Shown here: positions 17,094-59,517 of the stretch, in pieces
Numbering within the stretch: the first letter of the stretch is position 1
How the letters are laid out: each line of letters opens with the position of its first letter
From: an uncultured bacterium
Lineage (GTDB): Bacteria > Patescibacteriota > Microgenomatia > Levybacterales > UBA12049
Direction: 5' to 3'
NCBI GenBank assembly: GCA_963826535.1
Contig: CAWGXL010000011.1
Location: forward strand, 192,809 to 256,808
Length of the DNA stretch: 64,000 bases
The notes under the pieces: model-generated
Told to the model about the DNA's origin: nothing
The model's database searches: none
What the model saw: the letters and a program-made list of their open reading frames with translations, nothing else
Made by a program: the position numbers and the translations under genes

Positions 17094-17096
17094 GTA

Positions 17097-27674: not shown

Positions 27675-30323
27675 TCAAAAGAGAGGGAATATATCAAAAA
27701 AGCTAGCGTCCGGGTTCTCGCCCCTACATTCTGGTTCCGGAGTGGATTTGTCGTCCCAGCAAGGGATATTCTGCGAATCTTTATTGTCTTTTACCCAAGT
27801 AGACGTTTGCTCGGGTTTCTCACCCTTGCATTCTGGTTCCGGAGTAGCTTTGTTGTCCCAGCAAGGGATATTCTGCGAATCTTTATTGTCTTTTACCCAA
27901 TTGTCCTTGACAGGCAGTGCGGGTTGATCGGGTTGCGCAGGCGGCTGGGGTTTATTCACTTCACATTCCTGTTTGGGTGTTTCAAGGTCGTCCCAACATG
28001 TGCCGCCTGCTCCGGATGGATCCGGCTTTTGTACCCAATTTCCTCCGGCGGGTTTTGCAGGTTGCGCAGGCTTGTCAGGTTGCGGCTTGACAGGATCCGC
28101 GGGTGGTACGTATCCCTTCTGACCAGGAGCGCGTAGGTTGCCCGGGGGATCCGATTCGCATTCTTTTACTTCAGTGGTTGTTGTGTCGTCCCAGCAGCCA
28201 CCTTCATATTCTACATAACTTGGTTTCGGCTGGCCGTCGGGACCGGGCTGAAACTCGCTGGCGGAGCAACCCGTTATATTTAAGGCGGTTCCGGCACTAT
28301 CAATACTTTTCCGTGCGGCAGTACATGAAGCTTCAGTATCACCGCACTTTTCTGCTGATGTATTTCCATCCTTATTCGTATAAGAGAAGCACCATCGTGT
28401 TTGTTTGGGAGGAAGTGCTTGATCGCAAGGCACAACTTTATTCACACCATTTATTTCCTTATTACACCATTTCGCCTCTGGCTCACTTTTGGTACTAGCC
28501 GGTATCTGGCAACGCGGGTCGTTGGGATCCTTGCAAATGCCGGGTATTTTTAAGATATCAACTACGATTAGCTGAAAAATAACAAAGGAGAAAATAATAA
28601 ATATAAGTCCAACTATAGCCGCGATTAACTGATCACGTCCCTGTTGTACTTGTTCCGGTTTGCCTGATGAGGTAATTAGTTTATAGCCGGCAAAAATCAT
28701 AAGAAGCAGCGCTATTCCTCCAGCGAAACCGAGGAGGATAGTAAAGAATCTTAATACGAACGCGGCCGGATCGGTGGGGATATCCTTTGTGTCATCCGTA
28801 TCGCCGGAAAAGGAAGTACGGATTTTTTTACACCCCCCTGTCTCCAACCACTCGACACATGGGGGAGAAGGATTAATAATAGTAGTCGGTTTTGGAACAG
28901 TGGTCGGCTCAATGTATTGATTCGCGGTTTCTACATCAACAATACCCTGATCTACAAGTTTGGCTATAGTGTTGTCATCCAGGCCGGTAAGTCCAAACTT
29001 TTTCAGGACGCCTTTTACGTTATCTATAACTGATGGATCGCTGGCAACTCCGCCCGGTTGGCCGCAACCTCCCGATGACGGAGCGCTGCTGTTTCCGCTT
29101 GGTTGCGATGTGTTCCCGGTTGGGGCTTGTGCTTCCTTCCTACATAATGTAACCGTATGATTGACTGACTTGAATGCTTCTTTTTTATCATCGCACAGCG
29201 ACTGAGTAGCGTCGCACTGCACGCCTTTCACACCCCAGCGATTTGTCGCTGTAAAACAAAACAACTCAGAGACCGATGGCTTAGTGGATGTGCCTTCGCA
29301 TTCGTTAATATTCGGAGTCAGAATGTTATCGCAATCGCTGGGCGGACTGGTGGTGTCGGCCAAAACGTCTCCTCCCCTAGGCCCGGTTTGGGTGCCTTGC
29401 ACGCCGGTTGAGTTTTGTGCGGGTTGTTCAACACAACCTGTGACCGTATGCTTGGCTACCTCAAATACCTTTCTCATACTAATGCAATCATCTTTAGTAG
29501 CGGAGCACTGAGGACCTTGTGCGCCAATCTCGGGTTGAGCTGTTGAATCGAAGCACCATTTTGGTTTGGCTCCACTTGGCGGAGTGTCCGAGCATTTTTC
29601 GACAATATTCGGAGTAACAGTACTATCGCATTTTTCATCTCCGCCTTCTGGCAAATTTTCTCCGCTTGGCGGCGGTTTGGCCGCGCCGGAGCCGGATTCG
29701 CCTCCACAAGTTATTGCCTTCATAATACCTTCTGGACTAAAAATACCTAAATCTTTGAGTTTGCCTACTGTACTGGAGGGTATCTTAACGCCAAACTGAC
29801 CCAGGAGAGAATGTATTGTGTCCTCTTGAGTAAAAATTCCCTGAAGCCCGCCCTGCAATATCCCTCCGAGACCGAGCGCACCCCCCACTTCGTCTACTAA
29901 AATATCTTTTAAACCCACGCCATTTAAAAATTTATCCATTATCGGCGATAATGACCCAAGACCGGCGTATCCCAAGATGCCCTTTGTTATAGCGCCATAG
30001 TTTTCCTGAGCTATGAAGTCATAAGTCTCTCTACCTACAGAATAGATTTCATGACCTGTTTTAACTGTTTCAATAATCCCCATCAATTGCTCGCTTTGCA
30101 GTACATAATCCTTTGCTTGTTTTACTAACCCCTGGGCTTGCAGTGCTAATTGCCCGATATCTTCTGTTAACCATTGAGCATTTGCCCGTTGAGGATATAA
30201 AAAATAAGAAGCTGCGGTTGAAAAAACTACCAAGGACAAGATAATTGCTATAAATAACTTTTTCACTCCTTCCAGCATGACAAAAAATGATAAAATTTGC
30301 AAGAGGAGTGCGAATCTTGACAA
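27675..30323 (-). CDS. Large secreted/membrane-anchored Cys-rich repeat protein with an internal VirB2/TrbC-pilin-like double-TM hairpin
   Basis: Signal peptide. Two 70-aa 8-Cys modules. Central segment FFTILLGFAGGIALLLMIFAGYKLITSSGKPEQVQQGRDQLIAAIVGLIFIIFSFVIFQLIVV has two hydrophobic helices split by a short basic loop. C-terminal tandem repeats WVKDNKDSQNIPCWD-K-TPEPEC. Nucleotide tandem repeat of about 90 bp at 27736-27905. Confidence 0.5.
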   Translation of the reverse strand: MSRFALLLQILSFFVMLEGVKKLFIAIILSLVVFSTAASYFLYPQRANAQWLTEDIGQLALQAQGLVKQAKDYVLQSEQLMGIIETVKTGHEIYSVGRETYDFIAQENYGAITKGILGYAGLGSLSPIMDKFLNGVGLKDILVDEVGGALGLGGILQGGLQGIFTQEDTIHSLLGQFGVKIPSSTVGKLKDLGIFSPEGIMKAITCGGESGSGAAKPPPSGENLPEGGDEKCDSTVTPNIVEKCSDTPPSGAKPKWCFDSTAQPEIGAQGPQCSATKDDCISMRKVFEVAKHTVTGCVEQPAQNSTGVQGTQTGPRGGDVLADTTSPPSDCDNILTPNINECEGTSTKPSVSELFCFTATNRWGVKGVQCDATQSLCDDKKEAFKSVNHTVTLCRKEAQAPTGNTSQPSGNSSAPSSGGCGQPGGVASDPSVIDNVKGVLKKFGLTGLDDNTIAKLVDQGIVDVETANQYIEPTTVPKPTTIINPSPPCVEWLETGGCKKIRTSFSGDTDDTKDIPTDPAAFVLRFFTILLGFAGGIALLLMIFAGYKLITSSGKPEQVQQGRDQLIAAIVGLIFIIFSFVIFQLIVVDILKIPGICKDPNDPRCQIPASTKSEPEAKWCNKEINGVNKVVPCDQALPPKQTRWCFSYTNKDGNTSAEKCGDTEASCTAARKSIDSAGTALNITGCSASEFQPGPDGQPKPSYVEYEGGCWDDTTTTEVKECESDPPGNLRAPGQKGYVPPADPVKPQPDKPAQPAKPAGGNWVQKPDPSGAGGTCWDDLETPKQECEVNKPQPPAQPDQPALPVKDNWVKDNKDSQNIPCWDNKATPEPECKGEKPEQTSTWVKDNKDSQNIPCWDDKSTPEPECRGENPDASFFDIFPLF

Positions 30324-32490: not shown

Positions 32491-32645
32491 ATTTTTGGGG
32501 ACTTCGATGTCACCGAATTTTAGTGAGGACTTCTTTGTCTTCTTGTCTTCGTAATGAAGATAATGATATTAAAGCACATTAATATTGCTGTGTCAATAAT
32601 TATAAACAAGACTTATGCTACAATTTCTTTATAGAAAAACTGCGT

Positions 32646-47345: not shown

Positions 47346-48032
47346 CTAAAAAGGGATAGTGGGGTCTGTTCCGGGAGAATTATTTACAAAATGATTTCTG
47401 TAAATGCACAATTTGCAGGCTTCTGAAGGGATGGGTAATGGGCCATTTAATACTTCTGAAATTGATTTAATTAAAGTATAAAAACTTTGCATATTTTCTT
47501 CTATCGGATGCCAGGTTGGTTTAGCGGTAAAGAGTATTTTTCCATCTACGAGTTCCATTTGTTCAGGGTTTATACTGACTACTCCCATTCTTGAGATTTT
47601 AATTGGAGGCTTTCCATTATTGGGATTCTCGAGGGCATATTTGTAAGCATGGAGTTGAGATGCGTATTTTTGAATTTTTTCTTCGTCGGGTGTGGTGATT
47701 TTGAAATCAATGACTGTATAACTTCCGTCGTCCAACTTTGTGAGTATATCAAATCGGCCTGAGACAAAACAATCTTTTGTTCCCGGTATAGGGAGTGATT
47801 TTATAAATCCTTCTTGTATTTCTATGAGTCCTGATGGAAGAGTTGGATGGACATCTTTAAGATTCTTACCCATGATCGAGTTTTGAAGGAGACCGTTTAT
47901 TCTTCCAAACATAGAGGGGAATATACCGCTGGAGGAAATACCAAATTTTACTTTTTGATAATAGCAATGTTTACATTCTTCCCAAAGGTAGGAAAAATCA
48001 GAAGGGCTTAATTTATATAATTTAGGATTCAT
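47346..48032 (-). CDS. PD-(D/E)xK nuclease of the Cas4/RecB-like clade with a 4-Cys cluster
   Basis: N-terminal LSPSDFSYLWEECKHCYY (Cas4 S-x-S...C motif). GRFDIL ... VIDFKIT (D...D/ExK). QLHAYKYAL (QxxxY). C-terminal CKLC. Confidence 0.5.
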   Translation of the reverse strand: MNPKLYKLSPSDFSYLWEECKHCYYQKVKFGISSSGIFPSMFGRINGLLQNSIMGKNLKDVHPTLPSGLIEIQEGFIKSLPIPGTKDCFVSGRFDILTKLDDGSYTVIDFKITTPDEEKIQKYASQLHAYKYALENPNNGKPPIKISRMGVVSINPEQMELVDGKILFTAKPTWHPIEENMQSFYTLIKSISEVLNGPLPIPSEACKLCIYRNHFVNNSPGTDPTIPF

Positions 48033-48128: not shown

Positions 48129-48247
48129 CTGGCAGGGTGAGTCTTTTTGGTTTTAATCAGATGCAGGTGATTGTAAGTGGGGAGTATTCTGAGTGCAATA
48201 AAGCGATTACGATTGACAATCAATCCAATATACAACTGCTCAGGTAA
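48129..48247. repeat. About 120-bp direct repeat, copy 1, upstream (minus-strand sense) of the Cas4-like nuclease gene
   Basis: GGTGAGTCTTTTTGGTTTTAATCAGATGCAGGTGATTGTAAGTGG ... GCGATTACGATTGACAATCAATCC. About 90% identical to 49093-49213 with small non-triplet indels. Confidence 0.6.
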
Positions 48248-48322
48248 CCACAGCAAGTATATTGGGAATATAAAGCTACCAAGCTAATTCAAGTCGAAGG
48301 TTGTAATTTAAGCGGCATTATT

Positions 48323-48832
48323 TTATATAATACCCTTACTTTTTAATTCTTGAAACATTGTTATCGATCTTTCAACACCCGACATCTTAAGAGCTTCAAT
48401 ATCTTTACCTTCTTTTAATTCTTTTATAGCTATATAAGCAAAATTTTGGGTCACTCTGGGTTCCATTTTTTTAGTAACGAGAAGCGTTTTGACTTGCCCA
48501 TCATCTTTATAAAATTTTCCATTTAAAACATCCAGTATGGTCTTAGCCATATTGTCTACATCTCGCGATTTATAGTCTTTTTGTGATACGAAATACTGAA
48601 CTATAAAAACAAAAACCTCTTTGTCTGTAGGAAATTGCTTTGTGTGTTTTAAGTCGCTTTCTACTCTTTGAAGAAAAGTTTGTCTGAATGTCCCCAAGCC
48701 GCTTTTTTCATCTTTTCTTCTTGCCTCAGAAAAATTGTCCTTTTTAAAGGCTTCTTGAGTTGAAGGAATAATCATATCAATGCCGATATCAAAATCTACA
48801 GAAGTTTTAATATTTGCATTTTTCCTCGCCAT
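48323..48832 (-). CDS. RusA-like Holliday-junction resolvase (phage-type)
   Basis: SRDVDNMAKTILDVLNGKFYKDDGQV parallels E. coli RusA [27 protein letters not shown]. Confidence 0.5.
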   Translation of the reverse strand: MARKNANIKTSVDFDIGIDMIIPSTQEAFKKDNFSEARRKDEKSGLGTFRQTFLQRVESDLKHTKQFPTDKEVFVFIVQYFVSQKDYKSRDVDNMAKTILDVLNGKFYKDDGQVKTLLVTKKMEPRVTQNFAYIAIKELKEGKDIEALKMSGVERSITMFQELKSKGII

Positions 48833-48842
48833 TGGGGATATT

Positions 48843-49007
48843 TCAGGCTGTAATAAATGTGTAGAGCCTTACGCCTGTTTTGGTATTTTCTCTTTCTACT
48901 TTCTTTTCGGGTATTTCTTTACCTTCTTTTGTATAGAATGAAACTTTTGCCGGATTGTTTTTGTATTTTGTAGCTATAAAATAAACTTCTTTTTTTAACT
49001 TTTTCAT
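48843..49007 (-). CDS. Small hypothetical protein (54 aa) upstream of the RusA-like gene
   Basis: ORF below the track cut-off: MKKLKKEVYFIATKYKNNPAKVSFYTKEGKEIPEKKVERENTKTGVRLYTFITA. Confidence 0.2.
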   Translation of the reverse strand: MKKLKKEVYFIATKYKNNPAKVSFYTKEGKEIPEKKVERENTKTGVRLYTFITA

Positions 49008-49092: not shown

Positions 49093-49213
49093 CTGGCAGC
49101 AGGGGTGAGTCTTTTTGGTTTTAATCAGATGCAGGTGATTGTAAGTGGAGTATTCTGCGTGCAATAAAGCGATTACGATTGATAATCAATCCAACATCCA
49201 ACTGCTAAGGTAA
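49093..49213. repeat. About 120-bp direct repeat, copy 2, between the hsdR 3' end and the small ORF/RusA cassette
   Basis: See copy 1. Contains the small hairpin GATTGA-TAA-TCAATC. Confidence 0.6.
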
Positions 49214-49312
49214 GTTCAACAAGTAAATATAGAATTATTTTATAAAGAAGAAAAGGTGCGAAGCTATTTCAGATGGATGGTGCAGTTATTTTAAATATTC
49301 GTTTTAATAATT

Positions 49313-52300
49313 TTATGCACCAACAAAGCTTGTTGAATCATGATAGTGCTCATAAACAAAGTTATATATTTCTACTCCTTTACTATCACAGTCTTGTTTT
49401 GAATAAGTCGGTTCAGGTAGTGAATCATATAGAATATCAGAAATTGTTGTTTTAACTCCTGCGCGAGCTATCTCTTTTTCTCTCCAATCAATGACAAGCT
49501 TTTCATGTTTAAGTTTTGCTAAAAGATCTTTTGCAATCTTTTTTACTTTTTCTCGCTCATCAGGATTCAAGTTATCCTTTTGTAGAAGATCAAAAATTGC
49601 GAGTTCCTCTTCAGTCAAATTTTCTTTTACTGCTCTTTGTTCTTCTTCGCTTAACTCTTTCGCAAGTTCAACGAGGTCATCGAAAAGCTGATCGATATCA
49701 TGAGCTCCGGTGTTATACACATTTAGCATTGCCAAAAGTCTGTCCATGAACTTTGCACGTATTTTATTTTTTTTCATCATATCGATAATCTTTTTTTCCA
49801 GATCATCTCTTAGTGCCTCAACTTGTAAGTTTTTATTTTCAATCTTGTAAAAGAATTCATGTAAAGCATCGACATCGAGTGCGCTTAAATCCTTGAGTCT
49901 TTTATAATGTGGGACAACGTATTCACCAGCTCTAATTGACTTATCCAATAATAATTCCAAGTCTCTTTTTACCGGTGAAGTATCAATACTTCGAGCGCCA
50001 ACGTCTCTTATGCGCGAAGCAATTATACGAATTGCGGTTACCTCATTGTAATAATCTTCTGCTGAAGGATCAGGTAAAACAGATTTGTAGGCAGAATAAA
50101 GGTCTGCTGACAGGTTTAAAAATTCATTCTTTCTTTTTTGATCCACTAAAATTTGGTTGGCGTATTTATCGATAAGCAATAATTTCTGTTCATTAGGTGA
50201 TTTAAGCAAAACTTCAATATCTATTTTTAATCCTTTAAGCATTTCTTTAGTTTGCTTTAAAATATTTAACAAATCTTTCAAAAGCTCATCTTTACTTTTG
50301 ATTATTTCATCGTCTCCTGACTTGGTCGCAGCATAAAGGGCTAATGCTTTTTCAACGTTCTTAAAGACTCCAATATAATCAACTATCATGCCGTTTGTTT
50401 TCCCTTCGGATACCCGATTTGCTCTCGCAATTGCTTGCATCAAGGTATGATTTTTTAAAGGCTTGTCAAGATAAAGTGTTGAAAGCGTCGGGACATCAAA
50501 ACCGGTTAGCCACATTGCGCAAACAAATACAATTTTTAGATTGCTATCATCTTTCTTGAATTCTTCTTCAAGGTTTTCATTCTGTATTCGAGCTCGAAGC
50601 GGTCTCATTTCTATTTCAAACGGTTCAAGATCAGCAATTTCATTCTGTGATTGACTTACGACGACAGCCATATCTATTTTTTCAAGTTTTTCAATTTCTT
50701 CACGAATTTTCTCTTGCTCAAAATCATTCTCTGCTCTTGATAAATCCAACCGCAATTTAGCTAAATGCCTATCCCATTCAGCTTTTACTTTTGTATACAT
50801 ACGCACTGTTGTTTTTTTATCGATTGAGACGACCATTGCTTTTCCCTGATAACCCCGTCCGACAAAATGCTGCACAATATCCCTTGCTATCGCATTTAAT
50901 CTGTCTTCACGGGTTATCAAATGATAGAAAGTTGAAAATTCCTGTTCTACCTTTTCCTCTTCCTCATCGTTCATTTCGTAGTAATTCATTATTTTGCCAA
51001 GTTCTACTTCAAGCTGTGGGTTGATATTCTCAAGTTTGGCTACGCGATTTTCATAATATAAAGGAACCGTTGACCCATCTTTTACTGATTGACCAAAATT
51101 ATATACGGACACATATTCTCCAAAAGTACTCTTTGTTTTTTCTTCACCACGACTTAAAAGTGGAGTTCCTGTAAAACCAATAAATGAAGCATTTGGTAGT
51201 GCTTTTCTCATGTTCTGGGCGTAAGTATCGTATTGGCTTCTATGAGCCTCATCCGTCATAACAATAACATCATCCCGATCTGACACCGCTCCTGGGATAT
51301 CCTGAAACTTCTGAATAGTCGTAAAAATTTGTCTGTGATCCTCTTTTAGTAATAATTTTAAATCTTTAATTGAATCAGCCCTTACATGTTTTTCATAAAC
51401 TGCACCCACGTTGGCAAAATTTTTATATGCTTGGCCATCGAGTTGTTCGCGATCAGTAACAATAATAAAAGTAAAATTCCCAGGAATTTTTCTGAATACT
51501 TTTTGTGAGAGATAAACCATAGCAAAAGATTTTCCAGATCCCTGTGTATGCCAAAAAACTCCAAGTTTTCCGTTGAGTTCTTTTCTCTTTATAACTCTTT
51601 CAAATGCACGATTGACTCCGTAGTACTGAAAATACCTGGGAACTATTTTTTTAGTTTCTCCAAGTGATTCATCATAAAGAATAAAGTTTTCAAATATATC
51701 AAGAAGTCTTTTTTTGTCACAAATTCCTTTGACAAGAGTAGCTAAATCTTTTTTTGTCTCATCTTTTTCAGATTCAACTTTTTTCCACTCGTTAAAATAT
51801 TCAAAAGGGGATGTTAGGGAACCAAATTTATTCTCAATGCCATTGGAAATTACGATTCCCATGTTGTACCAGAAGAGGTGTGGAATGGTGTCTTTATAAT
51901 CCCGGATATTGTCTTTATACGCATCTACCAAACTTTTATGAGAGGCTTTTAGCTCTAATAGAAGGAGGGGAATACCATTAACAAAAAGAACTACATCTGT
52001 TCGTCTCGTGTACATCTCGCCCACCACCCATAGCTGGGAAACACAAAGAAAATTATTGTTTTCAGGGATTTCAAAATCAAAAAACTTCACATTCTCAATT
52101 TTTGAATTTCCATCTTGTGTTTTTATGTTTACGCTGAATCCATCTTTTAATAGTTTGTAGACTTCTTGGTTGGCTTTAACTAAAGTTGTATTTGATCTGT
52201 CTCTGGTTATCTCAGCAACTGACTGTTGCAAGGCTTTTTCAGGTAATGATGGGTTTATTTTGGTTAGAGCAGGGAGTAAATACTTTTTGAGGATTACTTC

Positions 52301-52438
52301 GCCGCGGTGTTCCCGGCCAAACTTTGCGTCTTCCGCGTCTATAAAAGCATTTATATGACAGGTTTCATCAGTCCACGCTTCTTTAATGAGTTTTATGACT
52401 GTTTGTTCAACTAAATTGTCTTCGCTAAATTGATTCAT
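49313..52438 (-). CDS. hsdR: Type I restriction enzyme R subunit
   Basis: HsdR N-terminal domain. Walker A HTQGSGKS. DEAH (MTDEAHRSQY). Helicase motifs throughout. 1041 aa. Confidence 0.9.
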   Translation of the reverse strand: MNQFSEDNLVEQTVIKLIKEAWTDETCHINAFIDAEDAKFGREHRGEVILKKYLLPALTKINPSLPEKALQQSVAEITRDRSNTTLVKANQEVYKLLKDGFSVNIKTQDGNSKIENVKFFDFEIPENNNFLCVSQLWVVGEMYTRRTDVVLFVNGIPLLLLELKASHKSLVDAYKDNIRDYKDTIPHLFWYNMGIVISNGIENKFGSLTSPFEYFNEWKKVESEKDETKKDLATLVKGICDKKRLLDIFENFILYDESLGETKKIVPRYFQYYGVNRAFERVIKRKELNGKLGVFWHTQGSGKSFAMVYLSQKVFRKIPGNFTFIIVTDREQLDGQAYKNFANVGAVYEKHVRADSIKDLKLLLKEDHRQIFTTIQKFQDIPGAVSDRDDVIVMTDEAHRSQYDTYAQNMRKALPNASFIGFTGTPLLSRGEEKTKSTFGEYVSVYNFGQSVKDGSTVPLYYENRVAKLENINPQLEVELGKIMNYYEMNDEEEEKVEQEFSTFYHLITREDRLNAIARDIVQHFVGRGYQGKAMVVSIDKKTTVRMYTKVKAEWDRHLAKLRLDLSRAENDFEQEKIREEIEKLEKIDMAVVVSQSQNEIADLEPFEIEMRPLRARIQNENLEEEFKKDDSNLKIVFVCAMWLTGFDVPTLSTLYLDKPLKNHTLMQAIARANRVSEGKTNGMIVDYIGVFKNVEKALALYAATKSGDDEIIKSKDELLKDLLNILKQTKEMLKGLKIDIEVLLKSPNEQKLLLIDKYANQILVDQKRKNEFLNLSADLYSAYKSVLPDPSAEDYYNEVTAIRIIASRIRDVGARSIDTSPVKRDLELLLDKSIRAGEYVVPHYKRLKDLSALDVDALHEFFYKIENKNLQVEALRDDLEKKIIDMMKKNKIRAKFMDRLLAMLNVYNTGAHDIDQLFDDLVELAKELSEEEQRAVKENLTEEELAIFDLLQKDNLNPDEREKVKKIAKDLLAKLKHEKLVIDWREKEIARAGVKTTISDILYDSLPEPTYSKQDCDSKGVEIYNFVYEHYHDSTSFVGA

Positions 52439-53957
52439 TTTCTGATATTTCTGGTAGGTACTTTTTCAATACGTCCACCATGGAATTCTTTTTATCGCCT
52501 GAGGTCAAAAAAGATAAAATTAGATTTTGATAGCCATTTTTAGCTAGCTCAAGATCAGTTTGAATTTCTTTTACAAGTCCTTTGTGAGGATAAGATTTTA
52601 ATATTTCAACTATATCTGCGTCATCTGAAGGTAGGTTAATTTTCTCCATTTCAGTATCCATCTCCGAAATAATACTTTTTTTGAAAGATTCGTAATCAGT
52701 CTTAGATTTCAAGGCTCCAAATTTTTCATCAAAAAGCCTATTTATTCTATACTTTGAAGCACTAAATAAAACTTCGTCCTTTCGTTGTTTGTATATACTT
52801 TTTATTTTTTCAGTCACCTGTGCTTTCTTATCGGTTTTTGACAAATGTTGAAGCACAAAATCAATGAACTCTGGAACCAGGAATATATTCTCAATTTCAT
52901 TTAAAGCAATGTTAAAAATAGATTCGGATTTTAAAGACTCTAGTTGGTTATCTGATCTAAAATCTCTATCTATTAAACCAAACACTTTTTTGTCGTGCAG
53001 AGATGTATTATTTCTAAGTCCTTTGACTGATTCGATAACTTTTTCACCCGAACCTCTGGCAATTACTGTGAAATTTTCGTAGTAAATCTGGTAAATTTGA
53101 GAATCAAGCGAACCTTTGTCACCCTCTACGAATAAAATTGGCTTCCTGCTTCCAAGAATCTCAAGGAAAAGTTCATCCGGGATAATTCCATTTTGGTCAA
53201 CTTCTTTCCACTCCCATGTGTTTTCTTTAAATGATTGAACCCATATGACTTTGCTGGCGGGTTTACTTACAGCAAAATCTAAATCGTGTGTTATGTAAAC
53301 AAATGAACAATCACTCCGGAATTCTTCAAGTTTGTTCCATAACCGTACCATTAACGCTTTATGTAAATGCAATTCGGGCTCATCAATTATCAGAATGCAG
53401 TTATCTTCAGCTAAGACGGTCTGAGATATTAAATACAAACCCACTTTTTCCCCATCACTCATTTCAGCTCCAGAATATTCGTTATTATCGCTTACCGCTC
53501 GAATACGATCTTTTTCCAACTTTAGCGGCCTGTAAGGGAAAATAAAATTCCAAACCTCCAAAACTTTTTCCTTAACGGAAACTGGTGTATCTTCTTTAGT
53601 AATACTGCCATTTAGATTTATGCTTTTAATTACCTCCTCATTTCTTGTTGCTTCTTGAGCAAATAACGAGATTAAGACTTGTTGATAATCATTTTGAGGC
53701 TCTACTGGGGGATGATTTTTATAACTGCTTCTTAATTGAGTATTTGCCGTCTCATAATCTTGCCTTTGTACTACCTCAGACAATTGTAAATATCTTTGGG
53801 CGGATATTCGTTTTGTAGGGTTGTTAATCTGTTCAAGCTTAGAGCCCAACCTGGTTTTCCCAGCCCCGTTTGCCCCAACTATTACTATGTTTTTTTCAAA
53901 TTCGAAAGATTCCACGACTGAGGATACGCCAGATTTAGGAAATTGAATAGTTTTCAT
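52425..53957 (-). CDS. ABC-type ATPase (AAA_15/21-like) fused to a C-terminal TOPRIM (DUF4435/OLD-like) domain, inserted between hsdS and hsdR
   Basis: Walker A VGANGAGKT. Walker B/D-loop ILIIDEPELHLH. C-terminal LFVEGDKGSLDS and FGLIDRDFRSD (TOPRIM Glu and DxD). Overlaps hsdR by 14 nt and hsdS by 4 nt. Confidence 0.6.
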   Translation of the reverse strand: MKTIQFPKSGVSSVVESFEFEKNIVIVGANGAGKTRLGSKLEQINNPTKRISAQRYLQLSEVVQRQDYETANTQLRSSYKNHPPVEPQNDYQQVLISLFAQEATRNEEVIKSINLNGSITKEDTPVSVKEKVLEVWNFIFPYRPLKLEKDRIRAVSDNNEYSGAEMSDGEKVGLYLISQTVLAEDNCILIIDEPELHLHKALMVRLWNKLEEFRSDCSFVYITHDLDFAVSKPASKVIWVQSFKENTWEWKEVDQNGIIPDELFLEILGSRKPILFVEGDKGSLDSQIYQIYYENFTVIARGSGEKVIESVKGLRNNTSLHDKKVFGLIDRDFRSDNQLESLKSESIFNIALNEIENIFLVPEFIDFVLQHLSKTDKKAQVTEKIKSIYKQRKDEVLFSASKYRINRLFDEKFGALKSKTDYESFKKSIISEMDTEMEKINLPSDDADIVEILKSYPHKGLVKEIQTDLELAKNGYQNLILSFLTSGDKKNSMVDVLKKYLPEISENESI

Positions 53958-55096
53958 GATTTTAATTCCCTCATTCCTGTCACAAGCTGAGGGATAAGTA
54001 TATCACAAATTTTTTCCAGGCTATAACTCTGTGCTTCAAGGTTATCTCGTAAATTGAAAATTTTTTGGACATTTATAGTAAATTGATTAAGTAGGCTGTT
54101 AGGCGGAACTATTATCTTTTTACCATATACATAGCTTCTATTAAGCCCTGGTACTGCTGCGTCTCCGGCAATATAACTTTGAGATTTTAAAAGATAATAA
54201 ATGAATTCTAAGTTCAAAGATGATTTAACATAATAAGTGGTGTCAATTGGATAAAAGTCATTTTTAACCCAAAATACAGAGCCTATATTGCCCTTTCTGC
54301 CTATTACAATTCCCGGTCCCGGAACAAATTTTTCGTTATGAAAACCAACTCTACCACTAGAACCATATACAGAAATATTTCCGTTAACTCTTGAGTCTTC
54401 TTTTAATGCTTTTCCATATGCAAGCTCTAATATATCACTGAGCTTCTTAACTTCCCACCCTTCTGGTATTTTGCCTAGAAGAGAATCGATCATTTTTACA
54501 TTTTCATGCCCGGGGAAATTGAATTTTATGAACCATTCTGTATAAAGCGTTTGTGCCATTTCCTCCAAAATCTTTATCCGCTTTTCGTTGTTTTCAATTA
54601 AATCGTTGTAGGCAGAAAGGACAGAAGAAATTTGAACTTGGGTTTTCAGATCAGGTAGATTTATAATTATATTTCTTAAATCTTCGAGTCTAATACCTGT
54701 AACTGTTGACCCATTCCCTATGTTTTGTAACTTAATTCCTGAATAAATTAAAGTCCAAAGTAAAAAATCATTATTAATTTTCTCATTAGGGTAAACTGCT
54801 TTTAAATCTTGATTTATTGCAGTACCAATTGTTGTTTTTACTACACGTCCCAATCCCATCCTAGTTGGCATTACTATGGTTCCAGCACTGACGAAATTTG
54901 AGGCACTATTATCTAAACCTTCTTGAGTAATATAATCTTGAGTTGAATCTAAATAATATCTGCCGTCTTCAAAGTCTTTAACACTTGCCCAAGGAATTGC
55001 ACCTCCCCAATATTGTAGATTACTTTTTGATGGAGTCCCCCCTCCTACAACCTTCTCTAACACATCTCCTAATTTTTGTTTTGTCCAAGTTGTCAT
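53954..55096 (-). CDS. hsdS: Type I restriction-modification specificity subunit (two target-recognition domains)
   Basis: N-terminal WTKQKLGDVLEKVVGGGTPSKSNLQYWGGAIPWASVKDF and a repeated central/C-terminal conserved region. 380 aa. Confidence 0.8.
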   Translation of the reverse strand: MTTWTKQKLGDVLEKVVGGGTPSKSNLQYWGGAIPWASVKDFEDGRYYLDSTQDYITQEGLDNSASNFVSAGTIVMPTRMGLGRVVKTTIGTAINQDLKAVYPNEKINNDFLLWTLIYSGIKLQNIGNGSTVTGIRLEDLRNIIINLPDLKTQVQISSVLSAYNDLIENNEKRIKILEEMAQTLYTEWFIKFNFPGHENVKMIDSLLGKIPEGWEVKKLSDILELAYGKALKEDSRVNGNISVYGSSGRVGFHNEKFVPGPGIVIGRKGNIGSVFWVKNDFYPIDTTYYVKSSLNLEFIYYLLKSQSYIAGDAAVPGLNRSYVYGKKIIVPPNSLLNQFTINVQKIFNLRDNLEAQSYSLEKICDILIPQLVTGMRELKS

Positions 55097-55098
55097 TG

Positions 55099-56094
55099 TT
55101 ATTTTTTCTTCAAATATTTTTTTACTTCTTTGTCAAAGTCGGAGAAGTATTTTTTGTCTTCATCTTTTCGATATTTTTCATACTCGTTATGAGCTATGGT
55201 TTCTGCTTTTTTGGCGCTGATTGATCCTGCGTCTTTTAGTATTTGTTTTTCGCTTAATTTCAAAAATTTATCGAGCTTAGACACCCAATCACTCATTTTC
55301 ATCAATCTGGCATTTGTTGCTTGTAGCTCGGCAAAGTCTAAATAAAGCGACACAATCAAATTTAATTGTTTGATTTCCGGTTCTGAGAGATAATTTTTGG
55401 CGATTGTTGTATCTGAGGCATGGATCTTTGATCCTTTGAAACTTGTTAAACCCATGTTTGGTTGTTTGCTATTGGCTCTTGTCGCGATAACTTCGGCGGC
55501 TGTGTGTCCATGGACTGCGTAGTGCATTTTATTTTGCACAGTTGCAAAAAATTCTTGAGTTAACTTATTATCTTTGCTGTAATCAATACTTGTGGCGTAT
55601 ATATCAGTGACTTTTTGATAAAAGTTTCGCTCACTGGCTCGAATATCCCGTATGCGCTCCAGAAGTTCATCGAAATAGGATGCTTTTCTGCCACCTTCTT
55701 TAAGACGCTCGTCATCAAGCGTAAAGCCTTTGACTATATATTCCCGGAGTCTTTGTGTGGCCCAAATACGAAATTGAGTGCCGCGAATTGATTTAACACG
55801 ATAGCCCACGGAAATAATTACATCGAGATTGTAGTATTCAACAGAACGCTTTTTCTCAACACCACCTTCTGTTTGAACTGTCAAGTAATCCTTGACAGTT
55901 GATTCTCTTGATAATTCAGCTTCTTTATAAATATTATTGACATGGAGACTAATGTTTTGTTTTGTGGTTTCAAATAGCTCAGTCATTTGAGCCTGGTTTA
56001 ACCAGGCTGTTTCGCCTTCAAAACGTACATCAACTTTTGTTTTACCGTCTGGTGTTTGGTAGAGAATAATCTCTGATTTATTTTTGCTTGTCAT
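55099..56094 (-). CDS. RhuM-family (virulence_RhuM) protein embedded in the type I R-M operon
   Basis: YQTPDGKTKVDVRFEGETAWLNQAQMTELF is the hallmark N-terminus of RhuM-family proteins. The hsdM-hsdS slot is the usual genomic position for this family. Confidence 0.7.
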   Translation of the reverse strand: MTSKNKSEIILYQTPDGKTKVDVRFEGETAWLNQAQMTELFETTKQNISLHVNNIYKEAELSRESTVKDYLTVQTEGGVEKKRSVEYYNLDVIISVGYRVKSIRGTQFRIWATQRLREYIVKGFTLDDERLKEGGRKASYFDELLERIRDIRASERNFYQKVTDIYATSIDYSKDNKLTQEFFATVQNKMHYAVHGHTAAEVIATRANSKQPNMGLTSFKGSKIHASDTTIAKNYLSEPEIKQLNLIVSLYLDFAELQATNARLMKMSDWVSKLDKFLKLSEKQILKDAGSISAKKAETIAHNEYEKYRKDEDKKYFSDFDKEVKKYLKKK

Positions 56095-56143
56095 AGTTAC
56101 CTTTCTTATTTTACTTTTCAGGCCAAAAGTATAATATGGATTT

Positions 56144-57721
56144 CTATATTATAGTTTTCCAATCTTCTTCAATTTTCTTTTCTAAGCTGTGTGCCTCTTT
56201 TGTGAGAGTTTTGAATTCCGATGTTAGTTCGTTCATTCGTGCTTCAAATTCCACATTATCCATTTCTTTCTCAACTATTTCGATATATCTTCCAGGATTT
56301 AAGGAATAATCATTTTCTTTTATTTCATCAAGGGTGGCAGCTTTGCAACGGCCTTTTATGTCTTCATATTTTCCGTATCCTTCCTCACCACGATATCGCC
56401 TGACAATTCCTGCGATTTCCTGTATTTGTTCATCGCTCCAGTTGTTATGTGCGCGATCTACTGGGGTAAAGATATTTTGTGTGTTGATAAACAATATTTT
56501 ATTTTGTCTATCTGTTCCTTTTTTACCTTTGTCCAAAAACCATAATGTGGAAGAAAGTGTTACATTTAGAAACATATTGGGCGGTGTTGAAATAATCACA
56601 TCAACAAAATTTTTCTCAATAAGTTTTTTTCTAATCTCCTTCTCAGCATGTCCAGCATCAGTTGCGGAGTTGGCCATGACAAAACCAGATCTACCATTAG
56701 AATTTAAGGCGCTCGCAAAGATTTGCATCCAAAGGTAGTTTGCATTTGTAATGTTGCCTTGTTGGGTAGTAGGAAGTCCAAGAAAATAACGTGGATCGCG
56801 GTGTAAGCGCTCTGGATCAATAATTACTTGACCATTCTCGTCAACACCAGCAACATTAAATGGTGGATTAGCTAGAACAAAATCAAATTTACCGATACTG
56901 TTGTGTGCGTCTTCATAATATGAGTTTGCCGGAAGAATCTTTCCTGATAGACCATGAATTGCTAAATTCATTTTGGCAATTTTAATTGTTGCGTCTTTAG
57001 ACTCTTGACCATAAATTGTTACTTGATCCATTACTTTGGATTTATTTTTTAAATGTTCTTCGACAAACTTAGCTGAATGAACGAACATTCCACCGCTTCC
57101 ACAAGCCGGATCAAAGATCCGGCCATGGTATGGCTCTATAACTTCAACCAAAAGCTTAACTATAGATTGAGCTGTAAAAAATTCTCCACCATTTTTCCCT
57201 TCTGCAAGAGCAAAATTTCCTAAAAAATATTCATAGATCTCTCCAAACGCATCTCCTTCAATGTCTTCTGGAATCTGATTAAAATTTTTAAGAAGAGTAA
57301 TAAGGATCCTATTATTTTCATCTGCTTTTTGCGAGAGAAGTGAGTAATTTTGAGGCAGAACACCAGCGAGATCTCTGTTATATTCTTCAATTGACTTCAT
57401 TGCTTCGTTAATTGCTTTGCCTATGTTTTCATTTTCTGGAAGGCTGATTAGATGTGAATATGTGGCTTTTTCTGGTACATATAATACGCCTCTAGCTTTG
57501 TAGTCTTCTGGAGAGACTGGTCGCTGTCTGGTTGACTGTGAAGAAATTCTATCTTTCCCTATTTTTACTTTGACTTTTTTAAATCGTACATCGGCAAATT
57601 TAAGAAAAATGAGTCCTAGAATTGGAGCAGAAATTTCATTTAAATTTAGCCCACTATTGGCACGCATTTGCTCAGCCGATGCCCACAGTTGATCTTGAAG
57701 TTGCTTTTTTTGTGCAGTCAT
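56144..57721 (-). CDS. hsdM: Type I restriction-modification N6-adenine DNA methyltransferase subunit
   Basis: HsdM N-terminal domain. Motif I DPACGSGGMF. Motif IV VLANPPFN. Confidence 0.9.
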   Translation of the reverse strand: MTAQKKQLQDQLWASAEQMRANSGLNLNEISAPILGLIFLKFADVRFKKVKVKIGKDRISSQSTRQRPVSPEDYKARGVLYVPEKATYSHLISLPENENIGKAINEAMKSIEEYNRDLAGVLPQNYSLLSQKADENNRILITLLKNFNQIPEDIEGDAFGEIYEYFLGNFALAEGKNGGEFFTAQSIVKLLVEVIEPYHGRIFDPACGSGGMFVHSAKFVEEHLKNKSKVMDQVTIYGQESKDATIKIAKMNLAIHGLSGKILPANSYYEDAHNSIGKFDFVLANPPFNVAGVDENGQVIIDPERLHRDPRYFLGLPTTQQGNITNANYLWMQIFASALNSNGRSGFVMANSATDAGHAEKEIRKKLIEKNFVDVIISTPPNMFLNVTLSSTLWFLDKGKKGTDRQNKILFINTQNIFTPVDRAHNNWSDEQIQEIAGIVRRYRGEEGYGKYEDIKGRCKAATLDEIKENDYSLNPGRYIEIVEKEMDNVEFEARMNELTSEFKTLTKEAHSLEKKIEEDWKTII

Positions 57722-57807
57722 ATATTATTCCCTTATTAACTTAAAACTGATCCTTATTATAACCGGTATTGGGATGTTTTGCGAGTTGATGTAATGATGG
57801 GTGTATC

Positions 57808-57912
57808 ACTTTGGAATATAGCTGGTAAAAATTTCTGAGCAGCTGTAGGCGTGGCAGACGATGCAGCTGTAATTGTAGTCTGCTAGTATTGCGTCGCGGT
57901 GGATTTTGTCGG
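57808..57912. repeat. About 104-bp direct repeat, copy 1: a duplicated 3' fragment of the CAP-domain gene, 35 codons plus stop
   Basis: Reverse-strand translation DKIHRDAILADYNYSCIVCHAYSCSEIFTSYIPK* versus the real C-terminus DKIHRDAILADYTYSCIACHAHNCSEIFTSYIPK*. About 90% nucleotide identity with 58629-58732. Confidence 0.6.
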
Positions 57913-58033
57913 GTTTGCGAACCGAAATATTGTTGGGGAGTGTATGGCTCAAATTATAATCTGCTATAATAGCCTTACAAAGTTATAATATTACTATGTT
58001 ATACTGATTAGGTTATATCAGGAAAGGATATTT

Positions 58034-58330
58034 ATGAGCACAGCAACAACTATCACATTTTCAATTGATCCGGCACTTAAGAAGAGAGCAAAAGAAAAAG
58101 TTGAGAAACTAGGCTTTAGTCTTGATTTACTTGTTGGTTCTTTTGTTGATAAATTACTTACAGTAGTCGCGGATAAAGAAAATGCTGACGCAGAAATAGT
58201 TCTTCATTTAGAAAAACCAAATGAGTATTTTAAACGGGCTATCAAAAAATCCAGAGGTGATAGAAAAGCGGGAAAAGCATCCCCCACCTTTGAAAAAGCT
58301 GAAGATGCGATTGAGTGGCTACATAAATGA
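58034..58330 (+). CDS. RelB/DinJ-family antitoxin
   Basis: ITFSIDPALKKRAKEKVEKLGFSLDLLVGSFVDKL resembles the DinJ N-terminus (RHH-like). A RelE-type toxin remnant lies immediately downstream. Confidence 0.5.
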   Translation: MSTATTITFSIDPALKKRAKEKVEKLGFSLDLLVGSFVDKLLTVVADKENADAEIVLHLEKPNEYFKRAIKKSRGDRKAGKASPTFEKAEDAIEWLHK

Positions 58331-58336
58331 GCCATT

Positions 58337-58618
58337 ATGAAAGTTAAATTTAGCCCGGAGTTATCCGCAAGGCAGTTGATGAGAAAATAAAAATCTTCCA
58401 AAAAGATCCACAGAATTCAGATTTACATAATCATGAACTTCGTGATGAGTATAAAGGACTACGGAGTATTAATATTACCAATGACTATCGAGCAATCTAT
58501 GAGGAAATAAAAGAAAGGAAAGACACGATAACAGCGTACTTTTCTTTACTTGGAACACATAAAGAGCTCTACGAAGTAAAGAGATTTAGAGTCAGAGTAA
58601 GGTTTAAAAGACAATAAA
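58337..58618 (+). pseudogene. RelE/YafQ-family toxin gene disrupted by a frameshift
   Basis: Frame 1 gives MKVKFSPELSARQLMRK*. From 58372 another frame gives AVDEKIKIFQKDPQNSDLHNHELRDEYKGLRSINITNDYRAIYEEIKERKDTITAYFSLLGTHKELYEVKRFRVRVRFKRQ*, the RelE/YafQ core pattern. Confidence 0.5.
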
Positions 58619-58626
58619 TAACTATA

Positions 58627-59517
58627 TTACTTTGGAATATAGCTGGTGAAAATCTCTGAGCAGTTGTGGGCGTGGCAGGCGATGCAGCTGTAGGTGTAGT
58701 CTGCTAAGATTGCGTCGCGGTGGATTTTGTCGTTGATCCACCAATTAAATGCGTGTTGCTCGGTTGTAAAATTGATTATGTTTTCATTAACGTAATAAGG
58801 CAGATTCATTGCTCTTAAGCCTGAGTGCATGGCGCTGTTACCGTAGATTTCATTGTAAACCTCAGGGGCTCTGTTTTGGGCGATGGCACAGACTGCTTCG
58901 TCTTTTTTAAAGGGGGGTAGATCAAAAGTGCTTCTATAATTATTGACCATAGCAAACAATTCATTTGCGTTAAGCCCGTTCACAGGCGCTGCTTGCTTAG
59001 TAATAGTCGGAATTGGAAAAGGAGTTGGGGTGGGCGTACTGGTAGGTTTGGGGGCTTGCCCCGATTGAACTTTGATTTTTTCACTGGGTTTTGCGGTTAC
59101 AATCGGGGTATCGGGGGAGCCCGGGGTGGGCGTAGACGTTGGTTTTAATGTCGGCTTGGGCGCTCGCTCCGATTTTATCGGGGTTAAAGTCCCTGCTGTT
59201 GGGAGGTTTGAAGTGGGTATTAAAATTTTATCTTCTGCAGGTGCACGATGTACTGATGAAAGGATATTGGGGGCCTGCCCCGATTTTATCGAGGTTGGGT
59301 ATAAGGTAATATTCTTTAGTTCCTTTTCGAGTGCCAAAACTTCCATTTCCATTTTTTGAAGCTCGGGGTCGTGGCCTGATTTAAGCGGAGCCGGAGTAGA
59401 TTTAATAACAACTTTCTTAATAATTGCTGAGTTACTTTTGTTAATTGGCAGCCCCGGAATAATACTTGAGGTAAAAGTACTCGCCATTAAGAAAAATGAA
59501 GTCAAAAGCTCAAACAT
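58627..59517 (-). CDS. Secreted CAP/SCP (YkwD-like) domain protein with a Pro/Thr-rich linker
   Basis: Signal peptide. PTSTPTPTPFPIPT linker. C-terminal NYRSTFDLPP ... WINDKIHRDAIL ... YSCIACH parallels the YkwD/CAP motifs (WMNSPGHRANIL). Confidence 0.55.
   Translation of the reverse strand: MFELLTSFFLMASTFTSSIIPGLPINKSNSAIIKKVVIKSTPAPLKSGHDPELQKMEMEVLALEKELKNITLYPTSIKSGQAPNILSSVHRAPAEDKILIPTSNLPTAGTLTPIKSERAPKPTLKPTSTPTPGSPDTPIVTAKPSEKIKVQSGQAPKPTSTPTPTPFPIPTITKQAAPVNGLNANELFAMVNNYRSTFDLPPFKKDEAVCAIAQNRAPEVYNEIYGNSAMHSGLRAMNLPYYVNENIINFTTEQHAFNWWINDKIHRDAILADYTYSCIACHAHNCSEIFTSYIPK
58629..58732. repeat. About 104-bp direct repeat, copy 2 (the functional 3' end of the CAP-domain gene)
   Basis: See 57808-57912. 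Together the copies bracket the DinJ-RelE(pseudo) cassette. Confidence 0.6.

Follow-up and report, generated by a model that had tools for sequence, protein, structure and literature searches.

Elements that integrate into the 3' ends of tRNA or protein genes characteristically leave direct repeats of the gene end, an intact target gene and tandem arrays of inserts. A different route to new DNA beside a conserved gene, homology-facilitated illegitimate recombination or transformation-generated merodiploidy, is known from the naturally competent Acinetobacter and Streptococcus pneumoniae, and the events described mostly delete recipient DNA. The ultra-small genomes of uncultured bacteria apparently have few classical mobile-element enzymes, yet they carry variable defence-gene islands.

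Here we analyzed a 64-kb stretch of DNA from an uncultured bacterium, referred to as the window, in which a small toxin-antitoxin (TA) cassette lies between two copies of the 3' end of a CAP/YkwD-domain gene. Literature searches for a prior description of such gene-end cassette arrays returned nothing relevant. The features of the locus are collected in Table 1.

Table 1. Features between the PD-(D/E)XK gene and the CAP gene, in window coordinates. L001 is the closest TA relative.
Feature	Position	Strand	Remarks
Copy A1 of the second direct-repeat pair	48133..48269		100 nt upstream of the PD-(D/E)XK/Cas4-like gene start (48032)
Small cassette: RusA (169 aa) and upstream 54-aa ORF	48323..49007	-	Bracketed by A1 and A2
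Copy A2 of the second direct-repeat pair	49101..49235		78 nt beyond the hsdR stop codon
Type I R-M island: hsdR, DUF4435/AAA ATPase, hsdS, RhuM, hsdM	49313..57721	-	Between inner copies A2 and B1
Copy B1, detached last 34 codons and stop of the CAP gene	57804..57911	-	Stop TGA 57806-57808
Junction segment from B1 to the cassette, 45 nt	57912..57956		No CAP similarity
5' region of the TA cassette, AT-rich, TATAAT-like boxes	57957..58033	+	Nucleotide similarity to L001 begins here
Intact DinJ/RelB-like antitoxin, 98 aa	58034..58330	+	End-to-end alignment with relatives
YafQ/RelE-family toxin remnant	58337..58617	+	ATG 58337; original stop 58615-58617
Copy B2, working 3' end of the CAP gene	58625..58732	-	Stop TAA 58627-58629; 9 nt from the toxin stop codon
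CAP/YkwD-domain secreted protein gene, 296 aa (anchor gene)	58627..59517	-	Pfam CAP above cut-off

The cassette and the two gene ends that bracket it

The repeat finder returned copies B1 and B2 as direct repeats of 108 nt with 91% identity and a spacing of 821, and blastn recovered the same pair as 57808-57911 and 58629-58732 (104 nt, 91.3%, E about 1e-32), which confirmed the figure of about 90% given in a preliminary description of the locus. Besides this pair, pair B, blastn found one further cassette-scale repeat pair across the whole window. The similarity between B1 and B2 sets in about 5 nt past the stop codon of CAP and breaks off sharply 105 nt inside the gene; at the inner end the two copies agree over 24 consecutive nt. 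As that description had it, B2 is the true C-terminal coding end of the CAP gene: the ORF passes the Pfam cut-off, and 113 homologues have the same conserved C-terminus (the best of them 56-59% identical over about 40% of the protein). The target gene is restored and the repeats are made of its 3' end, as is found with integrative elements, and this anatomy supports the insertion of the cassette at the 3' end of the CAP gene.

The peptide previously read from B1, DKIHRDAILADYNYSCIVCHAYSCSEIFTSYIPK followed by a stop, was exact. B1 forms part of a 48-codon ORF (57806..57952) that has no family match and in front of which the promoter scan placed a promoter-like, minus-strand match. Its placement downstream of hsdM holds in plus-strand coordinates only; in the direction of hsdM transcription, B1 precedes the start codon (57721) by 84 nt. 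No third copy of the CAP end was detected in the window by blastn-short or tblastn. The 45 nt between B1 and the cassette weakly and non-significantly resemble the stretch upstream of the L001 cassette; a remnant of the L001 repeat was rejected as the origin of this segment, the similarity being only about 55-60% and not significant.

The two copies differ by 10 substitutions that cause four amino-acid changes and leave the conserved Cys and His residues in place, and each has retained a stop codon, TGA in B1 and TAA in B2. When 10 random substitutions were simulated, four or fewer amino-acid changes arose with P = 0.020, and with P = 0.007 when retention of the ORF, the stop and the conserved residues was also required. 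On this test of 10 substitutions in one repeat pair, B1 and B2 appear to differ as alleles under protein-level selection would (P about 0.007-0.02), a pattern that would not be expected from neutral in-place duplication. Of the two mechanisms proposed previously, recombination between gene-end copies fits the data. A simple long target duplication is at odds with them: most differences between the copies fall on silent or tolerated positions, and neither copy has lost its stop. Given the 48-codon ORF and the minus-strand promoter-like match, selection may also act on B1 in place.

The TA pair is the sole content of the 821-bp unit between the repeats, and profile and family-model matches support its assignment as a DinJ/RelB-type antitoxin with a probable YafQ/RelE-type toxin. 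A profile built from 15 members of the antitoxin family matches E. coli DinJ (4Q2U, 4ML0; E=7.5e-5) over residues 4-69, which indicates homology to the ribbon-helix-helix N-terminal domain of DinJ/RelB. The window antitoxin itself matched the NCBIfam RelB/DinJ model weakly (E=0.004, below the curated cut-off); a Pfam search with this single sequence gave no match, and its relatives gave a weak match to Pfam RelB. It is 69% identical to the antitoxin of L001, and its full-length alignment with relatives bears out the earlier claim that it is intact. The antitoxin stop codon (58328-58330) stands immediately before the co-oriented toxin ATG at 58337, the gene order of this family. A consensus promoter scan of the 5' region found no plus-strand site. 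Searches with tblastn gave 74 antitoxin matches across 82 TA loci, and searches for the cassette on plasmids, phages or viral contigs gave no match.

A clean deletion has removed 31 nt of the toxin gene, about 10 codons and 1 nt, with its junction between 58362 and 58363, as defined against two independent relatives, L001 and L002. Read from its ATG, the frame runs into a premature stop (58388-58390), and the long frame downstream lacks a start codon, so that no intact YafQ/RelE ORF is left in the window toxin. A sequencing-error frameshift, raised as a concern in the preliminary description, is therefore very unlikely. That description had correctly called the toxin inactivated; the lesion, placed there at a frameshift near 58365-58385, is an internal deletion and not a single-base frameshift. 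The remnant scored 23.8 bits on Pfam YafQ_toxin (E=5.5e-5; cut-off 30), and P0115, an intact homologue with 61% identity, scored 35.9 bits on NCBIfam RelE_StbE against a cut-off of 27.9. At E about 2e-3, the toxin family profile also matched HP0894 and HP0892, two RelE-like toxins. Judged from the reading frames, the toxin is dead and the antitoxin has been kept, and a putative anti-addiction role for the surviving antitoxin is plausible.

The neighboring restriction-modification island

Beyond B1 lies a type I restriction-modification (R-M) island that is flanked by inner copies of two different repeat pairs, not by CAP-end copies. The second of these, pair A, brackets the RusA cassette at the end of the island opposite pair B, and its two copies are identical over 46 nt and then 85% identical over 89 nt, with a 2-nt indel. 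The interval from the CAP gene to the PD-(D/E)XK gene is a stacked defence island. It had been suggested that the R-M island integrated in the same way as the TA cassette. The mobility of the island was borne out, with homologues of hsdM at 77-85% identity (74-85% for hsdM and hsdR together) in unrelated contexts, against 56-59% for the best CAP homologue; its bracketing by CAP ends was not, there being no third copy in the window. A possible donor, with hsdM beside a CAP gene, was not seen in the five hsdM contexts examined.

Against Rfam, pair A had no match either at the gathering threshold or with E up to 1, and with fold z-scores of -0.8 to 0, a structured RNA was rejected. A 32-mer of pair A was absent from viral contigs. 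The 132-nt repeat pair of L001 was considered as a relative of pair A and rejected, as it is a MITE-like element with terminal inverted repeats.

No integrase or recombinase, including Phage_integrase, was found among the 30 window ORFs scanned, and the window holds no transposase and no tRNA or tmRNA integration target. The repeat finder detected no inverted-repeat pair with arms at the ends of the TA cassette. The annotated contexts of relatives likewise showed no integrase; most metagenome loci were covered to about 4 kb on each side, so that a recombinase encoded farther away would be missed.

Related cassettes at other gene ends

The recurrence of this architecture was assessed in 52 distinct related metagenome TA cassettes with usable flanks. 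Direct flank-to-flank matches exceeded all 5,200 shuffles in 12 of the 52, compared to one in the reverse-complement control, and the bracketing repeats of these 12 are 20-176 nt long and derive from the local target. Cassette-scale repeats numbered 51 direct versus 1 inverted in 328 kb of TA loci, and 1 direct versus 0 inverted in 470 kb of CAP-gene loci. The repeats are locus-specific, being the end of a TrxB-like gene in L071, of NDK in L076, of a 643-aa protein in L090, and of a 342-aa membrane protein in L100, L098, L102, L080, and L057; altogether, the same TA family is attached to at least nine unrelated target sequences. Bracketed cassettes often form multi-cassette arrays, and related genomes differ by whole cassette-plus-end units. 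Junctions in the related arrays lie 0-12 nt from the preceding stop codon. The inner boundary of the orphan ends varies within one array and between related arrays, and no fixed crossover point was found.

The orphan ends of the related arrays show 211 synonymous versus 30 nonsynonymous pairwise codon differences, encode Leu as CTC, CTG, TTA and TTG, and use all three stop codons. In the membrane-protein-type (L100-type) arrays the encoded peptide is conserved and the hairpin arm is not. Read off the alignments, the end copies in L090 have about seven synonymous differences (stop included) versus two nonsynonymous, and both of the two differences in L076 are synonymous. The bias towards silent or tolerated differences is far stronger in the related arrays than in the window. 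Together, these sequence comparisons suggest that recombination at gene ends gathers small defence genes with no integrase nearby.

A transposon or IS element was rejected on the grounds of duplications of 20-176 nt, with neither terminal inverted repeats at the window cassette nor a transposase in the window. An integron cassette or attC array was also rejected, as no integron integrase was found among the window ORFs scanned or in the annotated contexts of relatives and the repeats are the coding C-termini of CAP, TrxB-like, and NDK genes.

Exact-protein look-ups found no close relative of the source genome, and 31 CAP loci from species-representative genomes showed neither synteny nor orphan ends. 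One candidate orphan end, in L007, was rejected since two full CAP paralogues are present there. An exact 23-mer of the CAP-end repeat was absent from the metagenome and viral contigs searched. A close relative that could serve as donor or as source of the empty site was thus not found by the protein, CAP-locus, or 23-mer searches.

Origin of the bracketed cassette and its likeness to described systems

We tentatively favor, at somewhat less than an even chance of its being correct, the explanation that the window holds the scar of cassette stacking at a conserved gene end by homology-anchored recombination. The imported unit would have been a minimal cassette, about 0.7 kb from its promoter to the stop codon of the toxin, taken from a related lineage in which the TA cassette already lay directly behind the CAP gene. 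Recombination would have been anchored by CAP gene homology, with the incoming DNA supplying both the cassette and a working gene end (now B2, or a donor/resident hybrid). The joint at its far end would have formed some 105 nt before the stop codon of the resident gene, and the resident end, B1, would therefore have been pushed intact to the far side of the cassette, beside the older type I R-M island. The gene end itself would act as a portable recombination site, and a dedicated integrase would be unneeded. We infer both this recombination route and the arrival of the TA pair after the R-M island. Joining could have occurred by homology-facilitated illegitimate recombination after DNA uptake, or a circularised piece that included the gene end could have inserted by a single crossover. 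The RusA cassette of pair A would have been stacked on the other flank by the same process, and the 31-nt deletion would have killed the toxin later, leaving the antitoxin intact. Two features of the related arrays count against this explanation: the precision of their junctions exceeds that expected for random illegitimate joints, and duplications of 20-21 nt are short for RecA-type homology.

A rather unlikely alternative is a site-specific integrative element or its remnant, resembling an integron cassette, CIME, or satellite island, for which the replacement 3' end would be the attachment site and movement would depend on a tyrosine or serine recombinase acting in trans from elsewhere. Gene-end direct repeats, an intact target gene, and tandem arrays are what the classic elements produce. 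Element-borne gene ends would be expected to be functional, matching the coding constraint on the copies; the cassette ends are precise, from -35 box to stop codon; and all L100-type tail copies have a minimal core from AGACAAAG onward, with a short palindrome. Such an element has to be set against the lack of a recombinase in the 821-bp unit, the window ORFs, or the annotated relatives, the spread of one TA family over so many unrelated targets, and a duplication length and inner boundary that vary, the latter even within an array. The conservation in L100-type copies lies in the peptide and not in the hairpin arm, and viral contigs, phages, and plasmids were not found to carry the family. 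The order of arrival might also have been the reverse, which we consider unlikely: the CAP gene and TA pair would be resident, and the R-M island, anchored on its PD-(D/E)XK side, would have brought the last 105 nt of a donor CAP gene (B1), with an illegitimate joint immediately before the TA promoter. The hsdM and hsdR relatives described above show clearly that the R-M module is mobile, L035 has a same-length PD-(D/E)XK gene downstream of hsdR, B1 directly adjoins hsdM, and the decayed toxin suggests that the TA pair is not recent. In the metagenome arrays, however, the duplicated segment hugs small cassettes beside the anchor gene, and the reverse order is no more parsimonious because RusA must arrive after the R-M island on the other side in any case.

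It is improbable that the repeats record a true in-place target duplication at insertion, by a staggered break or replication template switching, with later divergence and possibly allelic replacement of the gene-attached copy. Repeats exactly flank the element in several loci (29 nt in L076, 20-21 nt in L095 and L067), variable length is natural for staggered breaks or template switches, and replacement of the gene-attached copy after duplication would mimic the selection signature. The differences between copies are nonetheless coding-constrained, orphan ends keep frame and stops despite 9-15% divergence, and orphans of one array differ at many synonymous sites, unlike neutral decay; repeated insertion at one gene end would moreover need a hotspot. 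An assembly artefact joining strain variants with different cassettes behind the CAP gene is highly improbable. The assembly does come from an uncultured organism, the 91% identity of the repeats is as in strain variants, and the inner 24 nt are identical; on the other hand, reads would have to contain the junction of B1 and the cassette, the source contig extends over 894 kb, and the same architecture is present in many independent assemblies from different projects.

Homology-anchored stacking could extend beyond this locus. The Patescibacteria (CPR) and similar uncultured bacteria may assemble small defence and TA cassettes into arrays that resemble those of integrons but have no integron behind them, in which the last 20-180 nt of a conserved host gene would be a portable recombination site travelling with each cassette. 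Each insertion would bring a working end and leave the prior one as an orphan, and the array would record successive horizontal acquisitions. We regard this generalization as doubtful at present. Were gene ends portable recombination sites, this would explain how ultra-small genomes gain and shuffle small cassettes and would mark each orphan end with its donor lineage. It would also explain the orphan gene-end fragments beside TA pairs, and so annotators should not label these as paralogue pseudogenes.

Among described systems, E. coli DinJ-YafQ resembles the window pair in its layout, an antitoxin with a DinJ-like N-terminus being followed after about 6 nt by a RelE-fold, YafQ-like toxin; the window pair differs in being distant (profile E 1e-4 to 1e-3) and in the loss of its toxin to the 31-nt deletion. 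Homology-facilitated illegitimate recombination is similar in that homology anchors one side only, within a conserved gene, the other side is joined without it, foreign DNA is added beside the anchor, and no dedicated recombinase takes part. In contrast to the events described for it, the survivors here, as read from the sequences, duplicate 20-176 nt of the anchor and form ordered arrays. Integron cassette arrays and CALINs, including the TA cassettes of chromosomal integrons, are likewise built of small, mostly single-operon cassettes, often TA pairs, between array-specific repeats, and relatives differ by whole cassette units. Here, the repeats are instead coding ends of a resident host gene, conserved as peptides and not as attC hairpins, the cassettes have their own promoters, and an IntI gene is not seen.

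The integrative elements of gene 3' ends (prophages, ICEs, genomic islands, CIMEs, and tycheposon-like satellites) show direct repeats of the target 3' end, an intact gene with one copy displaced, and tandem accretion at one site, and both displaced and replacement ends look functional. The unit described here differs in being only about 0.7-0.8 kb with no integrase found, and in combining one cargo family with many unrelated target ends, repeats of 20-176 nt, and a variable inner boundary. Pieces of the main gene also recur behind rhs, cdiA, and maf, each joined to a different cassette in an orphan toxin/immunity module, and exchange is thought to be by homologous recombination. The repeated piece there precedes an alternative C-terminal toxin domain, whereas here the repeat consists of the terminal codons and stop, and the cassettes are unrelated to the anchor gene.

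Gene-end repeats around the TA cassette

A repeat search of the window returned a 108-nt direct repeat, 91% identical and 821 nt start to start, comprising the end of the CAP/YkwD gene (B2) and a detached copy (B1), with the toxin-antitoxin (TA) cassette between them. The pair was recovered by blastn as 104 nt at 91.3% identity (E ~1e-32), in agreement with the roughly 90% identity given in the preliminary description. Similarity sets in about 5 nt beyond the stop codon and breaks off sharply 105 nt inside the coding region. B2 had been taken for the true C-terminal coding end of the CAP gene, and the Pfam match and an alignment of 40 homologues confirmed this, as the C-terminal 34 residues lie within the best-conserved part, with 3 invariant cysteines. 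All CAP relatives found were Levybacteria/Microgenomates MAGs, and the source organism probably belongs to this group as well. B1 is indeed detached, with its own stop codon and close to hsdM, but the 84 nt between it and the hsdM start codon place it upstream of that gene, not downstream as had been stated.

Features of the repeat-bracketed region, in window positions
Feature	Position	Strand	Description
Repeat pair A (A1 / A2)	48133-48269 / 49101-49235		the other cassette-scale direct-repeat pair, across the R-M island from B1 and B2
DUF4435/AAA_21 ATPase gene	52425-53957	-	inserted between hsdS and hsdR
RhuM-family gene	55099-56094	-	inserted between hsdM and hsdS
hsdM	56144..57721	-	type I R-M gene adjoining B1
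B1	57804-57911	-	same 34 residues as B2 with 4 substitutions
Antitoxin ORF	58034..58330	+	intact, 98 aa
Toxin gene	start 58337	+	YafQ/RelE-like remnant, disrupted
B2	58625-58732	-	3' end of the CAP ORF
CAP ORF	58627..59517	-	296 aa; Pfam CAP match above cut-off

A promoter-like match on the minus strand (TTGTAA-16-TATAAT, 10/12, 57953-57980) ends 1 base short of the TTG at which the 48-codon ORF with B1 begins, so the orphan end could conceivably be expressed, although the match may be due to chance in this AT-rich region. In a related genome (locus L007), two full-length paralogues with a CAP domain are separated by 8 kb (2311-3135 and 10934-11566); such paralogues therefore exist in the group and could in principle supply gene-end fragments.

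B1 and B2 differ at 10 of 105 nt. Four of the differences are single synonymous changes, and one changes the stop codon from TAA to TGA, so that a stop is retained in both copies. The 4 amino-acid changes affect residues that are variable across the homologues, except for an A-to-V change at a nearly invariant position. When 10 random substitutions were simulated 100,000 times, 4 or fewer amino-acid changes resulted with P=0.020, and with P=0.007 when retention of the ORF and stop and at most one conserved-residue hit were also required. The two ends have diverged as alleles do, unlike a gene and its decaying duplicate. The earlier proposal of target duplication or gene-end recombination is accordingly narrowed: recombination is best supported, whereas a simple in-place duplicate does not fit allele-like copies.

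The antitoxin was, as described, found intact between the repeats. Its family profile matched E. coli DinJ (4Q2U, 4ML0; E=7.5e-5), and tblastn gave 74 matches across 82 TA loci. The toxin remnant matched Pfam YafQ_toxin with a score below the cut-off; an intact homologue, 61% identical, passed NCBIfam RelE_StbE, and the toxin family profile matched the RelE-like toxins HP0894 and HP0892. The toxin is broken and its frame shifted, as had been reported, yet the lesion is not a plain frameshift. Compared with protein homologues and the DNA of 2 independent relatives, there is a clean 31-nt gap at 58362|58363, with loss of about 10 codons; the frame of the start codon runs only as far as a stop at 58388-58390, and the long frame lacks a start codon. 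A sequencing error had been raised as a concern; the gap is a genuine deletion and not an error of the homopolymer type. The surviving antitoxin may guard against related incoming toxins.

The R-M island and its left flank

Along the + strand the order is PD-(D/E)XK, A1, RusA, A2, R-M, B1, TA, B2, CAP. Left of the TA cassette, Pfam identified a type I R-M system into which RhuM and DUF4435/AAA genes are inserted; relatives of the system have other genes at those positions (Fic, SDH protease, DUF3644). Homologues of the R-M module, 74-85% identical, stand in unrelated contexts, and the module is itself mobile. Farther left, RusA and a PD-(D/E)XK/Cas4-like gene are accompanied by another pair of small genes. 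Pair A encloses RusA and a 54-aa ORF, and consists of 46 nt at 100% and then 89 nt at 85% identity, with a 2-nt indel; it is non-coding, had no Rfam match, and its fold was not significant. A and B are the only cassette-scale direct-repeat pairs in the 64-kb window. The R-M island, too, had been suggested as possibly integrated at the 3' end of the CAP gene, but the window holds no third CAP-end copy, so the island is not bracketed by such copies.

A metagenome contig (L035, Logan SRR22388211) carries a related R-M island, its hsdM 83% identical at the protein level. Two genes after this island is a 228-aa PD-(D/E)XK gene (10576-11262) whose DNA is 72% identical to window 47388-48019, so PD-(D/E)XK may move together with the R-M module instead of serving as a core anchor. 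Between dus and the PD-(D/E)XK gene of the window, two overlapping small ORFs of 94 and 91 aa (46421-46980, minus strand) resemble by eye a putative BrnT/BrnA-like TA pair, for which NCBIfam gave no meaningful match; given their position, 46.4-58.7 kb looks like a single stacked defence/TA island.

Elsewhere in the window, AT-rich 130-nt elements (17096-17225 and 32361-32492, 76-91% similar) lie 15 kb apart, match each other both directly and as reverse complements, and flank a segment within which the GC content of the window is at its highest. A tandem 102-nt repeat, 91% identical (27709-27798 and 27811-27900), lies inside an 882-aa ORF (27675..30323, minus strand).

Repeats around related TA cassettes

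No close relative of the source genome was found, and the relatives of the cassette were therefore examined instead. None of 80 metagenome loci with toxin relatives had a CAP gene nearby, and many were bracketed by direct repeats 630-860 nt apart, often in arrays. Direct local alignment of one flank to the other exceeded the best of 5,200 shuffles in 12 of the 52 distinct cassettes with usable flanks, versus 1 in the reverse-complement control. Counting repeats of at least 20 nt with 85% or higher identity and a spacing of 300-3000 nt, the TA loci (328 kb) contained 51 direct versus 1 inverted, and the CAP-gene loci (470 kb) 1 direct versus 0 inverted. The repeats are locus-specific, are derived from the local target sequence, and involve duplications of 20 to 176 nt; whole cassette-plus-end units make up the difference between related genomes.

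Three copies of a TrxB-like gene end in L071 separate a cyclase-containing segment, the TA cassette, and a Ni-SOD gene from one another. The last 10 codons of ndk (AEKEINLWFG) occur in L076 on ndk itself and, orphaned, immediately behind the toxin stop codon. In L100, L098, L102, L080, and L057, a 342-aa membrane protein provides the recurring end (..EQWFFFLQTKREELG*), up to 6 copies of which lie between cassettes; among these cassettes are 2 TA pairs of the window's family, an aspartyl-protease pair, and an AAA-ATPase gene in reversed orientation. A repeated segment separates 4 TA-type cassettes in L089, and in L090 the repeats likewise consist of a gene end, that of a 643-aa protein.

Other repeats were noted at these loci. 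The third TrxB-like end of L071 (4218-4256) is split by a 27-nt GC-rich palindromic insert, ccacttcgccaaggcttcgcggggcaa, missing from the other two copies. In L001, a 132-nt element with 21-nt terminal inverted repeats (GGCTCTCCCGGAATTCCCGTG...) and a MITE-like appearance occurs twice (2823-2954 and 3785-3916, 98% identical), enclosing 830 nt of GC-rich sequence. The gene next to the TA pair on its upstream side at this locus, for a secreted protein of 167 aa, is flanked by copies of a 32-nt repeat that contains a hairpin (4025-4056 and 4592-4623).

The 10 full copies of the membrane-protein end, mostly orphans preceded by in-frame stops, showed 211 synonymous versus 30 nonsynonymous pairwise codon differences, with leucine as CTC, CTG, TTA, or TTG and the stop as TGA, TAG, or TAA. 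The L090 copies differ by about 7 synonymous changes (stop included), AGG to CGC being among the changes, versus 2 nonsynonymous, and the L076 copies by two synonymous-site differences. Orphan ends with so many silent differences and no matching neutral decay cannot go back to old duplications in place, and must until recently have served as working gene ends in lineages that had diverged.

Probable origin of the architecture and similar known systems

Of the readings considered, homology-anchored stacking has the best support. Incoming DNA of a related lineage would bring the end of the anchor gene with an adjoining cassette and recombine through that gene, with its far end joining at a variable point shortly upstream of the resident stop codon and pushing the resident gene end aside as an orphan. 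In the window, one such event would have occurred at CAP and another, marked by pair A, beside PD-(D/E)XK; the R-M island would be an older resident between them. Either the TA cassette or the R-M island may have arrived last, the R-M module being itself mobile.

It is possible that a site-specific recombinase acting in trans moves the cassettes. Their ends are precise, one array family shares a minimal core, and the flank seen in most loci is only about 4 kb; within the window, Pfam found no recombinase among 30 ORFs and ARAGORN no tRNA. However, the inner boundary of the orphan ends varies within one array, and a hairpin arm inside the membrane-protein end is unconserved while the peptide is kept, which argues against a fixed crossover or structure-specific site. 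A further possibility is a true target duplication in which the copy on the gene was later exchanged by allelic replacement. An assembly chimera is unlikely, since the architecture recurs in many independent assemblies.

We found no description in the literature of TA cassettes bracketed by copies of host gene ends, which is weak evidence of novelty. The architecture has likenesses in the possible products of homology-facilitated illegitimate recombination and in the orphan modules of polymorphic toxin loci. It mixes features of two known kinds. With elements that integrate at gene 3' ends it shares a replacement end, a displaced end, and tandem accretion, and with integron arrays small cassettes, many TA pairs, and an array-specific repeat between them; unlike both, it comes without the defining integrase and the attC or att core.
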